Below, piece by piece: positions 1,471 through 5,740 of a stretch of 5,740 nucleotides of DNA. This DNA is from a virus (Duplodnaviria > Heunggongvirae > Uroviricota > Caudoviricetes). Numbering within the stretch: the stretch's first letter is position 1; the number at the start of each line of letters is the position of its first letter. The stretch lies in the IMG/VR virus record IMGVR_UViG_2547132274_000013; one strand, written 5' to 3'. The notes under the pieces are model-generated. The model saw only the letters and a program-made list of their open reading frames with translations, was not told the origin of the DNA and did no database searches. The position numbers and the translations under genes are program-made.

Positions 1471-2616
1471 ATGAAGAAATTAATCGAACTCCGCCAGCAA
1501 AAAACCGCCCTGAAAAACCAGATGCGATCCCTGCTGGAAAAAGCCGACAGTGAAAACCGCAGTCTGACCGATGACGAGGGCAAACAGTTTGATGAACTGC
1601 GTGCAAAAGCCGATTCCCTCGACACAGAAATCTCCCGTCTTGAAGCTGTTGCGGATGAAGAACGTAACCAGCCTGGTGTTTCCGTCGAAGAGAAAATCAC
1701 CAAAGATGAACTGCGCTCTTACATTCTGACCGGGGAAACCCGCAACCTGTCCGGCAGTGTCCCGGCTGATGGTGGTTATACGGTTATCCCGGAACTGAAC
1801 AGAGAAATTATGCGTCAGCTTTCTGATGAATCGGTGATGCGTAAAATCTGTACCGTTAAAACCATTCACAGCAATGAATTTAAGCAACTGGTTTCTGCCG
1901 GGGGCGCGGTCGTTGAACACGGTGAAGAAGGCACTACACGTAACCAGACGGCAACACCAAAACTGAATGAAGTCAGTATCCGCCTGTATCCGATCTACGC
2001 TTACCCGAAAACCACTCAGGAAATTATCGATTTTTCCGAAGTCGATATTATGGGCTGGTTATCCTCTGAAATTGGCGACACTTTCGTTGATACCGAAGAA
2101 ACGGATCTGGTTTCCGGTGACGGCGAGAAAAAAGCTAAAGGTTTCCTGGCTTTCCCGCGCACTGCAGATAATGACAAAACCCGTCCTTTCGGTACGCTCC
2201 AGACGAAAAAAGTGACTGGCAGCCTCAGCGCCGACATGCTGATTGACCTGAAATTTACGCTACGCAATAAGTACCGCAAAAAAGCTGTATGGGTGATGAA
2301 CTCAAATACAGCCGCCTCCGCACAAAAACTGAAAAATGCCACTGGTGATTACATCTGGCGCGATCGTTTACAGGCTGGTGATCCTGATTCTCTGCTGGGG
2401 CTTCCGGTTGAATATCTGGAATTTATGCCGGACGGTGTGATTGCAGTAGGTGACTTTAAGCGCGGTTATTTCATCGTTGACCATGAAACCGGTACGCGTA
2501 CCCGTCCGGATTTCAGCGAACCCGGATTCATTAACATCTATACCCAGAAATATCTGGGCGGTGGTGTGGTGGATTCGAACGCCATCAAGATTCTGGAAAT
2601 TCAGGCTGGCAAGTAA
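1471..2616 (+). CDS. Phage major capsid protein, HK97 family, with N-terminal delta (scaffold-like) domain
   Basis: 381-aa ORF. The N-terminal roughly 70-100 aa are a charged, coiled-coil-like segment (MKKLIELRQQKTALKNQMRSLLEKADSENRSLTDDEGKQFDELRAKADSLDTEISRLEAV) typical of the HK97 delta domain, followed by a body typical of HK97-fold capsid proteins. A prohead protease gene lies immediately downstream. Stop TAA at 2614-2616. Confidence 0.88.
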   Translation: MKKLIELRQQKTALKNQMRSLLEKADSENRSLTDDEGKQFDELRAKADSLDTEISRLEAVADEERNQPGVSVEEKITKDELRSYILTGETRNLSGSVPADGGYTVIPELNREIMRQLSDESVMRKICTVKTIHSNEFKQLVSAGGAVVEHGEEGTTRNQTATPKLNEVSIRLYPIYAYPKTTQEIIDFSEVDIMGWLSSEIGDTFVDTEETDLVSGDGEKKAKGFLAFPRTADNDKTRPFGTLQTKKVTGSLSADMLIDLKFTLRNKYRKKAVWVMNSNTAASAQKLKNATGDYIWRDRLQAGDPDSLLGLPVEYLEFMPDGVIAVGDFKRGYFIVDHETGTRTRPDFSEPGFINIYTQKYLGGGVVDSNAIKILEIQAGK

Positions 2617-2624
2617 TGAGCAAA

Positions 2625-2645
2625 GGGGGCTTCGGCCTCCTTTTT
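2625..2645 (+). terminator. Intrinsic terminator/attenuator after the capsid gene
   Basis: GGGGGC (2625-2630), TTCG tetraloop (2631-2634), GCCTCC (2635-2640; one G-U pair in RNA), then TTTTT (2641-2645). It starts 9 nt after the capsid stop and precedes the protease RBS. Confidence 0.55.
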
Positions 2646-2665
2646 CAGCTTTATGGAGTACACCG

Positions 2666-3226
2666 ATGAAAAATACCGATTTTGAAATCCGTACATCTGA
2701 ACTGACCGCCAGCGATAAAAAACTGGTGGGTTATGCCGTTCGCTGGAACAGCCTTTCAGAAATTATCTGGGACGAATTCCGCGAACAGTTCACGCCGGGG
2801 GCTTTTGCTGACTATCTGGCGGCGGGTAATGATGTGCGCTGCCTGTATGAGCATGACTATACCCGACTGCTGGGGCGCACCAAATCCGGAACACTGGTAC
2901 TGACTGAGGACAACACCGGGCTACGTTTTGAACTGACACCGCCTGATACCCAGCTTGGAAAAGATGTGCTTACGCTGGTGGAGCGAGGCGACATTACAGG
3001 AATGAGCTTTGGCTTTCGCGCATTATGCGAAGAATGGAATATCGCGCAAAAACCGTATCTGCGCACTGTTACCGCCGCAGAACTCCGTGAAATCACGATA
3101 ACGTCAATGCCTGCTTATCCCGAATCCGGCGTGGAGATTGCCCACCGTTCGTTGTTTGCACAGCACCCTGAATTACGCCCGGCAGGAAATAATCGTCATC
3201 GCTGGGCTGAACTGGCGGGGTTGTGA
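2666..3226 (+). CDS. Prohead (maturation) protease, HK97 family (S78/U35-type)
   Basis: ATG at 2666 preceded by GGAG at 2655-2658. Motifs typical of HK97 prohead proteases: YEHDYTRLLGRT with a candidate catalytic His, and GDITGMSFGF with a candidate catalytic Ser. Stop TGA at 3224-3226. The ORF track's upstream extension to 2450 overlaps the capsid gene and is not the real start. Confidence 0.85.
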   Translation: MKNTDFEIRTSELTASDKKLVGYAVRWNSLSEIIWDEFREQFTPGAFADYLAAGNDVRCLYEHDYTRLLGRTKSGTLVLTEDNTGLRFELTPPDTQLGKDVLTLVERGDITGMSFGFRALCEEWNIAQKPYLRTVTAAELREITITSMPAYPESGVEIAHRSLFAQHPELRPAGNNRHRWAELAGL

Positions 3227-3227
3227 T

Positions 3228-4442
3228 ATGTGGTGGCCTTTTAGTCGTAAAAAAAGCGATCTGCGTAACCTGTCCATTGATGATTTTCTGGCGCTGTCCG
3301 GCGTACCGAATACCGGATCCGGAGAATATGTTTCTGCCGGGACGGCTGAATCATTGCCTGCTGTGATGAACGCGGTTTCTGTCATCGCTGAGGCGGTGGC
3401 CACGATGCCGTGTTATCTGTATCTGGTACGTAATGACAAGGGCAGGGAGGCGCGGGAATGGCTGGACAGTCATCCGGTAGATATTCTGCTGAATGAGCAG
3501 CCTAATTCGTGCCAGACACCTTACCAGTTTAAACGCACAATGATGCGTCACTGTCTGCTGAACGGTAACGCCTATGCGGTTATTGAGTGGGGGCAGGACG
3601 GGCAGCCAAAATCACTTCATCCTTATGCGCCGGGGTGTGTTGTACCGGAACGCACAGGCGCACACAAATACCGCTATACCATCACCGAACCCTGTACAGG
3701 AACGGTGCGCACGTATTTACAGGAAGAAGTTCTGCATCTCCGCTATGCCTCGGATGATGGCTTTCTGGGGCGCTCCCCCGTCACTATTTGCCGTGAGGCG
3801 CTGGGGCTTGGCCTTGCTCAACAGCGTCACGGAGCCAGCATTATGAAAGATGGCATGATGGCGGCAGGGATTATCACGTCAGGCGAATGGCTGGACGGTG
3901 TGAAAGGTAAACAGGCATTAGACGCCCTGGAACGCTACAAGGGGGCGAAAAATGCCGGAAAAACGCCAATCCTTGAAGGGGGCATGGATTACAAGCAACT
4001 GGGAATGAGTAACCAGGATGCGGAATGGCTGGCCTCCCGTCGCTTCTCCATTGAAGACATCGCCCGGATGTTCAACGTGTCGCCTATTTTTCTGCAGGAA
4101 TACAGCAACAGCACCTACAGCAATTTCAGTGAGGCAAGCCGCGCGTTTCTGACCATGACAATGCGCCCGTGGCTGGCGAACTTCGAACAGCAAATCAAGG
4201 CCGCTTTGCTGGTGGCTTCTCCCGTACCTGGTACCCGTTATCTGGTTGAGTTTGATTCAGCCGATTTATTACGCGCCACCCCTACCGAACGTTACGCCAC
4301 GTATGAGAAAGGGATTAAGAACGGGATCATGAATCCGAACGAAGCCCGCGAACGTGAGGGGATGCCGCCGCGTGAAGGTGGCGACGAATTCAGCCAGGCA
4401 TGGAAGCAGACGGTGGAAATTAAAGGTGAAAAAGATGAGTGA
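3228..4442 (+). CDS. Phage portal protein, HK97 family
   Basis: ATG at 3228, 1 nt after the protease stop (TGATATG). The 404-aa product has portal-like segments (CLLNGNAYAVIEWG; RRFSIEDIARMFNVSPIFLQEYSNSTYSNFSEASRAFLTMTMRPWLANFEQQ). Stop TGA at 4440-4442. The ORF-track start at 3138 overlaps the protease; 3228 is preferred. Confidence 0.85.
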   Translation: MWWPFSRKKSDLRNLSIDDFLALSGVPNTGSGEYVSAGTAESLPAVMNAVSVIAEAVATMPCYLYLVRNDKGREAREWLDSHPVDILLNEQPNSCQTPYQFKRTMMRHCLLNGNAYAVIEWGQDGQPKSLHPYAPGCVVPERTGAHKYRYTITEPCTGTVRTYLQEEVLHLRYASDDGFLGRSPVTICREALGLGLAQQRHGASIMKDGMMAAGIITSGEWLDGVKGKQALDALERYKGAKNAGKTPILEGGMDYKQLGMSNQDAEWLASRRFSIEDIARMFNVSPIFLQEYSNSTYSNFSEASRAFLTMTMRPWLANFEQQIKAALLVASPVPGTRYLVEFDSADLLRATPTERYATYEKGIKNGIMNPNEAREREGMPPREGGDEFSQAWKQTVEIKGEKDE

Positions 4443-4734
4443 AGAAAAAATTACACCTGATGAAGTCAGGGCACATCTTCGCCTTGATGACTTTTCCGGA
4501 GAAGGCGAACTTCTGAAAATGTATACCGATGCGGCGCTGGAAGCCTGCCAGAAGCACATCGGGAAACGTTTTGAAGACGGTCTGGAATTTACCCCGGCAA
4601 TGCGTGTTGGTTGCCTGATGTACATCGCTTTTCTGTATGAGAACAGGGAAGCGGTTTCACCTGTGGAGCAGTCGGAACTGCCTATGGCTATTTCTGCGCT
4701 CTGGTCAGTTTATCGTGATGTGGGGGTGTATTGA
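4435..4734 (+). CDS. Head-tail connector/adaptor protein, gp6-like (Phage_connect_1-type)
   Basis: ATG at 4435 preceded by AGGTGA at 4423-4428; overlaps the portal stop by 8 nt (ATGAGTGA). The 99-aa product MSEEKITPDEVRAHLRLDDFSGEGELL...FLYENREAVSP matches the gp6-like connector pattern (conserved HLR-x-DD near the N-terminus and YENRE). Confidence 0.8.
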   Translation: MSEEKITPDEVRAHLRLDDFSGEGELLKMYTDAALEACQKHIGKRFEDGLEFTPAMRVGCLMYIAFLYENREAVSPVEQSELPMAISALWSVYRDVGVY

Positions 4735-5174
4735 TGCCGTGGCAACCATTAAGGCGTTGTACTGAACCGGGCTGTAATAAGCGTGTGAAGTCCGGCAAGT
4801 GTGAAGAGCACAGGCGGGCTGCATGGCGTGCAGAGGATGCCAGACGGGGACACCGCCGCGCGCGTGGGTATTCCCGACAGTGGGACAAATACCGCGCCCT
4901 GTATCTGAGCAAAAACCCGTTATGCGTGCGTTGTCTGGCTAAAGGTATTTATACGCCAGCTCTTGTGGTGGATCACATCATTCCCATCAATGGCGGCGGT
5001 GATGTTCTCTTCTGGCCTGAGTGGAATCACCAGGCATTGTGCCAGACGTGCCACAACCGTAAGACGACACGGGAAGATCCAGCCACGAAAGCGAACCGTA
5101 AGGCGGGCATGTATCGCGAGCAGGAAGAACGGGCGGCACATCGTAACGACTGGATGTATGGCGATGATGACTGA
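4734..5174 (+). CDS. HNH endonuclease (terminase-associated, phage packaging type)
   Basis: ATG at 4734 overlaps the connector stop (TGATG). The 146-aa product has Cys-rich zinc-binding and HNH motifs (CTEPGCNKRV...KCEEH; VVDHIIPINGGGD; NHQALCQTCHNRKT). It sits immediately upstream of the small terminase, as in HNH-dependent cos-packaging phages. Confidence 0.85.
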   Translation: MPWQPLRRCTEPGCNKRVKSGKCEEHRRAAWRAEDARRGHRRARGYSRQWDKYRALYLSKNPLCVRCLAKGIYTPALVVDHIIPINGGGDVLFWPEWNHQALCQTCHNRKTTREDPATKANRKAGMYREQEERAAHRNDWMYGDDD

Positions 5175-5462
5175 ACAGGAGCAAAACAGGCTGATACGTG
5201 GACTGATAAGGCAGCGTGACACATGGAAGGCACAGGAGACAGGGCACAAAGCCAACAGGACAGGGCGCACAGAACGCACCACAGCGAAGCGATTAACCGA
5301 CCGTGACCGCGAGGTCATGGAATGTTTTCGCAATCGCTGGTGAGGCCGTCAGAGGGGGTGGGGGAGGTTTTCAGGACGAAACCGTCCCTGCCGGACACCG
5401 ACCGCCTCCTCAAATTTTTGTGCACGGGAATTTTTTTGAAAATAATTGGGCGAAAAAAGAAC
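5175..5462. other. Candidate cos/packaging-recognition region between HNH and terS
   Basis: 288-bp non-coding gap in an otherwise overlapping operon. It contains a G-rich tract GGGGGTGGGGGAGG (about 5354-5367), a dyad GGACG-AAAC-CGTCC (5374-5387), a GTGCAC palindrome (5420-5425) and an A/T tract AATTTTTTTGAAAATAATT (5429-5447) just upstream of terS. The position between HNH and terS matches where cos lies in HK97-like phages. Function is inferred, not shown. Confidence 0.3.
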
Positions 5463-5740
5463 ATGGCAAGACCACCAAAAGCCCCCGCTTACCTGGATGA
5501 AATCGCGGTCAGGCAGTGGAAGGAAAAATCGCGCCAGCTTTCCGGACGGGAAGACCTTACCCCCGCCGACTGGAGCAATCTGGAGCTGTATTGCGTTAAC
5601 TACTCCATATACCGCAAAGCCGTCGAAGACCTTGCCACGCGCGGGTTCAGCATTGTTAACAGTCAGGGCAGCGAGAGCAGAAACCCCGCCCTGAGCGCAA
5701 AGGCTGACGCAGAAAATGTAATGAACACATCCCCCCCATT
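5463..5740 (+). CDS. Terminase small subunit, P27 family (3' end beyond window)
   Basis: ATG at 5463; the frame stays open to the window end (no stop, so it is absent from the ORF track). My translation is MARPPKAPAYLDEIAVRQWKEKSRQLSGREDLTPADWSNLELYCVNYSIYRKAVEDLATRGFSIVNSQGSESRNPALSAKADAENVMNTSPP, which fits the P27-family TerS pattern (LELYC-x-Y; NPAL) and the HNH-adjacent position. Confidence 0.8.
   Translation, partial: MARPPKAPAYLDEIAVRQWKEKSRQLSGREDLTPADWSNLELYCVNYSIYRKAVEDLATRGFSIVNSQGSESRNPALSAKADAENVMNTSPP

Follow-up and report, generated by a model that had tools for sequence, protein, structure and literature searches.

The window analyzed here, a stretch of 5,740 nt, carries on the + strand genes for a PerC-family protein, the major capsid protein, the prohead protease, the portal protein, a head-tail connector and an HNH endonuclease, followed by the start of terS. 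Judged from its sequence, the window is the packaging module of an Escherichia coli capsid-forming PICI (cf-PICI). The organisation of cf-PICIs has been described by Alqurainy et al. (bioRxiv 10.1101/2022.09.08.507074), and these islands use their own HNH, TerS and TerL for packaging their own DNA (bioRxiv 10.1101/2022.09.08.507074). We found that the segment from HNH to terS (4700-5740, 1,041 bases) is matched in 515 of 5,426 complete E. coli genomes at 82-99% identity, the closest match being a RefSeq E. coli island in KFu019 (98.9%) and the O157:H7 copies showing ~84-85%. The KFu019 locus contains a complete, near-identical element with integrase, primase, capsid module, HNH, terS (present at full length in L001) and terL. 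The element is an island of ~15 kb that combines PICI-type integrase, regulation and primase with capsid, protease, portal, connector, HNH, terS and terL; neither the content of the window nor the whole element, as read in the KFu019 locus, includes tail or lysis genes, as the cf-PICI class demands. EcCIEDL933 (NZ_CP008957.1, 1,680,329-1,694,760), which is ~85% identical to the window, has the same gene order, and both EcCIEDL933 and KpCIDSM30104 share with the window element the succession capsid, protease, portal, connector, HNH, small ORF, terS and terL. A difference is that EcCIEDL933 and RM6927 possess a head-closure gene between portal and connector, which is absent in the window lineage. 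In the window, the portal gene directly overlaps the connector gene at 4435-4442 (compare L002 2404-2742 and L284 11103-11441). A short gap 3' of the capsid gene (2617-2665), read by eye, contains a G+C-rich hairpin and then a T-run (AAAGGGGGCTTCGGCCTCCTTTTT), which together look like an intrinsic terminator or attenuator placed between capsid and protease.

The interval between HNH and terS had been described in a first-pass annotation as a 288-bp non-coding gap and a candidate cos site. Its boundaries, the HNH stop at 5174 and the terS start at 5463, were confirmed. The left 169 bp, however, belong to a conserved gene for a small basic protein, and the description as non-coding holds only for the remainder. 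The ORF is regarded as a real gene, since it is annotated in RefSeq (WP_001251185.1), its product matches phrog_3173 (E = 3.6e-29, 57/57 profile positions), conserved variants are widespread and dN/dS values are low. The 83 distinct variants of the protein, from Escherichia, Klebsiella, Enterobacter, Erwinia, Rahnella and Xenorhabdus, keep a constant frame, a similar length and a common C-terminus (RDRE[LV]xECFRNR), and pairwise dN/dS values of 0.12-0.43 in moderately diverged pairs indicate purifying selection. The start conserved among these relatives (M-T-E) corresponds to 5167, which gives a protein of 58 aa. The true non-coding gap is therefore 5344-5462, or 119 bp. The small Arg-rich ORF had been put forward as an alternative to cos; the ORF exists, and it is not an alternative, as ORF and cos are both present. 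The features of the region are listed in Table 1.

Table 1. Features of the window from the HNH gene to terS, including the predicted parts of the cos site.
Feature	Position	Strand	Remark
HNH endonuclease gene (upstream context)	4734..5174	+	Pfam HNH, E = 8.8e-10
Small conserved basic protein gene	5158..5343	+	61 aa from ATG 5158
Predicted cos, left conserved block: G-run GAGGGGGTGGGGGAGG, then TTTTCAGGACGAAAC	5352..5383	+	Conserved in motif- and protein-retrieved sets
Variable spacer with dyad GTCC-CTGCC-GGAC, then AC closing the left arm	5384..5398	+	Lowest conservation within the gap
Predicted 10-nt cohesive end CGACCGCCTC	5399..5408	+	The 10 nt missing from the linear contig
Right conserved block, cosB-like, CTCAAATTTTTGTGCACGGGAATTTTTTTGAAAATAA	5409..5445	+	Conserved across genera
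Variable leader before the terS ATG	5446..5462	+	Low conservation; terS ribosome-binding site expected there, none identified
terS, P27-family small terminase (5' part only in the window)	5463..5740	+	Pfam Terminase_4, E = 5.8e-16

He et al. (bioRxiv 10.1101/2025.02.11.637232) assign the capsid protein of EcCIEDL933 to gene 1786. Counted on from this gene, the EDL933 locus reads 1787 protease, 1788 portal, 1789 head closure, 1790 connector, 1791 HNH, 1792 small ORF and 1793 terS. This consecutive numbering suggests that the small gene of the window is probably the orthologue of EcCIEDL933 gene 1792, mutation of which, according to the published phenotype, severely reduces transfer. By this orthology, the small protein would be a putative accessory transfer factor. 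Searches of Pfam, NCBIfam and PDB with the protein gave no match, and its AlphaFold model shows two helices and a basic low-confidence linker (pLDDT 77, pTM 0.36).

The position of packaging termini was assessed with relatives that are 72-98% identical to the window element in the gap region. A Nextera XT library made from lysate particles of K. pneumoniae DSM 30104 gave the record of vB_KppS-Ant (GenBank LR881103, 16,548 bp), which its paper presents as a filamentous ssDNA prophage (PMC8006926). We found that its gene content is that of a cf-PICI, and LR881103.1 is the packaged cf-PICI of K. pneumoniae DSM 30104 (KpCIDSM30104). The entry (L006 1-16548) is titled 'Escherichia phage vB_KppS-Ant', and its gene 2036-4333 carries the annotation of a tape measure protein. 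The last bases of the record are ...GGTTTTCAGGAC, equivalent to window 5377, and its first base lies 22 nt upstream of the terS ATG. Compared with the chromosome of K. pneumoniae ATCC 13883, which we take to be the same type strain as DSM 30104, the record is 100% identical on both sides, and exactly 69 nt, which include the predicted overhang, are absent between its ends. With a tagmentation (Nextera XT) library, the loss of tens of bases at the ends of linear molecules is expected. Packaged KpCIDSM30104 DNA has been reported to form concatemers via cohesive ends (He et al., bioRxiv 10.1101/2025.02.11.637232); the available portions of the texts on EcCIEDL933 and KpCIDSM30104 (Alqurainy et al. 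2022, He et al. 2025) give no location for cos.

The ends were placed to the base with a metagenome contig, IMGVR_UViG_3300022664_000095 (L197 + L107), of 15,518 nt, which is of unit length and collinear with vB_KppS-Ant. This contig begins with CTCAAATTTTTACGC and finishes with ...CGCAAGGCAC; its first base (at CTCAAATTTTT) is placed at window 5409 by BLAST, and its last base (...GGCAC) corresponds to window 5398. An integrated relative (L077) reads through the junction as GGCAC-CACCCGCCCC-CTCAAATTTTT, and therefore exactly 10 nt, equivalent to window 5399-5408, are absent from the linear contig. The contig has fixed ends and is without a terminal repeat, as opposed to the permuted, terminally redundant molecules of pac (headful) packaging. 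In two relatives, the contig (15,518 nt) and vB_KppS-Ant (16,548 nt), the DNA is of unit length and both fixed termini lie in the gap, and the linear-deposited relatives start just before terS and finish just after HNH and the small ORF. Partial support was found in a draft-genome contig ending 1 nt into the 10-nt overhang (L078) and in L127, in which homology stops within the overhang. The placement of the nicks to the base depends on one contig that is informative at both ends, with partial support from two or three others, and the G-runs and C-runs of the gap are possible sites of technical assembly breaks. The end of L030 at +12 was rejected as a terminus, being a storage boundary within a longer contig that is continued by L131. 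The end of PQ569648.1 ('Klebsiella phage P12620-1', 106.5 kb; L008 = 88000-106503) near the site was left unused because the assembly looks chimeric; this record ends with a 15.9-kb cf-PICI (junctions near L008 2640 and 18504), which borders on unrelated DNA at the opening codons of terS and is truncated within the small ORF. No additional termini came from a search for the other end of the L127 contig, from a search for more linear contigs or from a metagenome scan.

The nicks inferred from these ends lie at 5408^5409 on the top strand and at 5398^5399 on the bottom strand. The cohesive ends of HK97 are 3'-protruding. The linear contig lacks the 10 nt instead of carrying them twice, and from this, together with the 3' ends of HK97, the ends of the island are most likely 3'-protruding as well. 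The decamer itself varies among islands, being CGACCGCCTC in the window element, CGAACGCCTC in EDL933 and CACCCGCCCC in Klebsiella, and the spacer likewise differs by a few bases.

Conservation of the gap was assessed in two ways. The first sets of homologues were fetched by motifs of the gap, and the columns of these motifs are conserved by construction. Because of this bias, 80 loci were also retrieved via alignment of the TerS protein, from Klebsiella, Aeromonas, Citrobacter, Serratia, Xenorhabdus, Photorhabdus, Proteus, Providencia, Erwinia, Yersinia and Pasteurellaceae. The same architecture was found upstream of terS in 72 of the 80. From the left, it comprises a G-run, then TTTTCAGGAC or TATCAAAAATGAC with AAA behind it, ~15 nt of variable spacer, GG(A/C)AC and a C-rich decamer; next comes CT(C/T)(A/C)AATTTTT-RYGCACGG-nn-TTTTTTT-GAAAATAA, with ~20 variable bases before the terS ATG. 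In lineages without the small ORF (Pasteurellaceae and many Xenorhabdus), the layout is kept and directly follows HNH. Alignment of the gap with homologous elements, which had been proposed as a check, thus revealed conserved blocks around the nick region, namely the G-run and the A/T-tract block.

Several of the sequence features cited in the first-pass annotation as parts of cos were re-examined against these relatives. The G-rich tract at 5352-5367 is present and conserved, and so are the A/T tracts of the A/T-rich segment at 5412-5462. The GTGCAC palindrome (5420-5425) is present in the window, but relatives have ACGCAC or ATGCAC at this position, and we rejected it as a conserved element because it is lineage-specific. 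Similarly, the short dyad (5384-5396) exists as described, but it lies in the most variable part of the site; stems of at least 4 bp occurred in 37% of the relatives' spacers as compared with 17% of shuffled spacers, a weak enrichment, and the dyad was not retained as a conserved feature. The suggested IHF-like site was not recovered, as the IHF consensus WATCAANNNNTTR had no match anywhere in the window with up to one mismatch.

We compared the gap with the cos site of HK97, the GenBank record of which starts and ends at the cos cut, giving the junction ...GGGCAGGGGGGGGGATCAAATCTTCAAAACCTTTGCCCCAAATGAC CGCCGCCAAA | GTTTGAATTTAACGCTAACCCGATTTTTTTAG...ATG with terS at +50. A gapless position matrix was built from 70 unique sites retrieved by the TerS protein, covering -62 to +52 around the +1 derived from the contig. 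When this matrix was slid over 3.3 kb of HK97 on both strands, the best of 6,438 positions was the HK97 junction, with an offset of 0. With partial matrices, the left half ranked the junction first and the right half seventh, and the overhang alone was uninformative. Since the cf-PICI and HK97 anchors were derived independently, the match of the matrix supports a common layout as well as the cut position. HK97 and the cf-PICI consensus are identical at 56 of 114 positions. Two other comparisons were negative: the Smith-Waterman score of the gap against the HK97 junction was no better than those of dinucleotide shuffles, and an nhmmer profile of 71 protein-retrieved gaps found no match in HK97. 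On the window, the matrix gave a single strong site, with a score of 95.8 at 5409, and the other window matches listed were the same site shifted by 1-2 bases, all scoring below zero. One site was found in the KFu019 locus (L001), and one in a 50-kb stretch of EDL933, where it lies inside EcCIEDL933; the HK97-like prophage hosting the KFu019 island gave no match.

The cos of HK97, like the gap of the window element, lies between the HNH gene and terS. In both, a G-run precedes the cut by ~45-50 bp, and the 10-nt cohesive end, which in the window element is a prediction, is C-rich; both further have an AAATTT-type sequence at +1 to +11 and a G/A step followed by a run of seven T at ~+22 to +30, the run itself being located at +23 to +29 in the window element and at +24 to +30 in HK97. 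The terS ATG is at +55 in the window element and at ~+50 in HK97. The two differ in the sequence of the overhang (CGACCGCCTC versus CGCCGCCAAA) and in the distance from HNH to the cut, which is 319 bp in HK97 and 224 bp in the window element (5175-5398), 169 of them belonging to the small gene. The proteins are related to different degrees: TerL is homologous to HK97 gp2 (27% identity, E = 2e-48) and HNH to gp74 (36% identity, E = 6e-17), whereas TerS has no sequence similarity to gp1 detectable by BLASTP (E = 4). By Pfam, TerS of the window element falls into the P27/Terminase_4 family, and HK97 gp1 has no family match. HK97 TerS binds cos at +15 to +29, a stretch with an A-tract, and the overhang is 10 nt (bioRxiv 10.1101/2023.07.17.549218). 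The sequence counterpart of this stretch in the islands is CACGGGAATTTTTTT, also at +15 to +29 and conserved across genera, and 5409-5445 is the presumed TerS recognition site. As TerS is without sequence similarity to gp1, the position of the HK97 binding site has been transferred by analogy. The layout of HK97 cos appears to be kept in register across Enterobacterales, Aeromonas and Pasteurellaceae despite a different TerS sequence family.

A second point of reference is the lambda-type cos (cosQ-cosN-cosB), used by classical E. coli PICIs that employ Rpp. As in the window, a cleavage site and a TerS recognition region lie by the terminase genes. The lambda-type site, however, has a 12-nt 5' overhang, in contrast to the 10-nt gap in the linear contig of the relative of the window element, and an IHF site between cosN and the TerS-binding repeats, which has no counterpart by consensus in the window. 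The window system further includes an HNH protein, and its terminase is HK97-like rather than lambda-like. Recognition in this system is by the island's own terminase, whereas in Rpp-using PICIs the TerS of the helper is redirected.

From these comparisons, we consider it very probable that the cf-PICI has its cos site at 5344-5462 and that this site is constructed as in HK97; this reading draws on sequence comparison and on the termini of relatives of the window element. The idea of a cos between HNH and terS as in HK97, which was central to the first-pass annotation, is borne out by the ends of relatives that map there and by the exact HK97 register. It is what the HK97 paradigm predicts and is unsurprising in kind. 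The annotation was partly supported, in that its main idea was right and its coordinates and several of the features it cited need correcting.

Three other explanations of the gap were weighed. One is that it serves as a regulatory leader for terS-terL (a promoter, a terminator or attenuator, or translational control), with cos located elsewhere in the island. A scan of 5344-5462 for promoters and terminators on the + strand returned no site, the DNA fold of the gap was no better than those of shuffles (z = -1.05) and the gap had no match in Rfam; a structured RNA, a promoter and a terminator were rejected on these grounds. The gap does lie directly upstream of terS, it has A/T-rich parts as well as a G-rich and a C-rich tract that could pair, and conservation by itself cannot tell regulation from packaging. 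However, linear-deposited relatives have their termini exactly in this gap, the site is in register with HK97 cos, and the element contains no second matrix site, so that we regard a purely regulatory leader as highly improbable. It has to be weighed also whether the whole 288 bp is coding or translated, the small ORF being the sole functional element and the other 119 bp a spacer. This is hardly credible, even though the small ORF is real and conserved and its probable orthologue in EcCIEDL933 affects transfer. The coding-type conservation across the interval that would be expected was found in its left part, the small gene, whereas the 119-bp gap is conserved in blocks with indels and shows no codon pattern; its architecture is kept right after HNH in the Pasteurellaceae and many Xenorhabdus that have no small ORF, and it is to this 119-bp gap that the ends of the related linear records map.

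The remaining explanation concerns the ends themselves, which might be technical artefacts of a drop in coverage or of assembly breaks at G/C homopolymers, the island using headful (pac) packaging or a cos elsewhere in the gap. Both ends of the 15,518-nt contig flank exactly 10 nt, which is the overhang length reported for HK97, and the start of this contig is in register with the experimentally defined HK97 junction (rank 1 of 6438); the contig is moreover of unit length and collinear with vB_KppS-Ant. It is true that G-runs and C-runs are difficult for short-read chemistry, that independent ends are few, and that vB_KppS-Ant loses 69 nt, far above the length of the overhang. A loss of tens of bases is, however, expected with a library of its type, and the cohesive ends reported for KpCIDSM30104 by He et al. 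also speak against an artefact. We therefore consider this explanation very unlikely.

With the gap read as an HK97-like cos, the following course of packaging can be proposed. After induction and replication, the TerS of the satellite would recognise the A/T-tract block at 5409-5445. The TerL of the satellite, presumably helped by its own HNH, would then nick the two strands at the predicted positions, 10 bp apart. Packaging would probably proceed rightwards, with terS entering first, into the small capsids of the satellite until the next cos is reached. The resulting molecules would be of unit length and carry cohesive ends of 10 nt (top strand, CGACCGCCTC) that most likely protrude 3'. Separately, the gene at 5158-5343 would provide a small basic protein that presumably aids transfer in trans. 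[quoted passage not shown] The base-level prediction (nicks, 10-nt end, TerS block and G-run) offers a target for mutagenesis, for cos-plasmid reporters and for delivery vectors, and may also help to recognise cf-PICIs and their packaged ends in viromes.

A further and rather unlikely idea combines two proposals, that the small basic protein acts on cos as a specific accessory factor, binding or bending its left arm, and that the hypervariable spacer beside the nick (5384-5398) is a lineage-specific discriminator. If it were true, co-resident cf-PICIs and HK97-like prophages with a common cos architecture would avoid cross-packaging, and a new layer of specificity would be added to HK97-type packaging.

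The sites of integration were also noted. The closest RefSeq copy, in KFu019, sits within a prophage terL gene and not beside phoQ, a difference from the characterised cf-PICIs. In KFu019 (L001 1-19028 + L285 1-6500; NZ_CP091700.1, ~2,796,000-2,821,500), the cf-PICI lies inside terL of a resident HK97-like prophage: prophage HNH, terS (P27 family) and the 5' portion of terL come first; the island follows, beginning with its integrase and finishing with a terL of its own; to its right lie the 3' portion of the prophage terL and, after it, portal, protease and capsid. The right-hand junction in Evo1 (L004 6272-7015) is the same as in KFu019. Many IMG/VR cf-PICI contigs (L051, L054, L056, L063, L080, L102, L113 and others) terminate with ...CGTTGTTCGAACAT, which is the reverse complement of the start of fis; this sequence suggests an attachment site next to fis that is common to Klebsiella- and Enterobacter-type islands.

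Some copies of the site show rearrangements or multiplication. Xenorhabdus (L211-L283) has many copies of terS and cos, with at least five loci in X. innexi and at least six in X. kozodoii, and in X. hominickii (L250, ~2850-2900) the G-run is expanded to five tandem GGGGTA units. In Shigella flexneri CP182556.1 (L261, ~2960-3000), a deletion of ~85 nt between two CCCCGCC repeats has removed the right cos block, with the nick region to its left and the initial codons of terS to its right, and from its sequence this copy looks inactivated.
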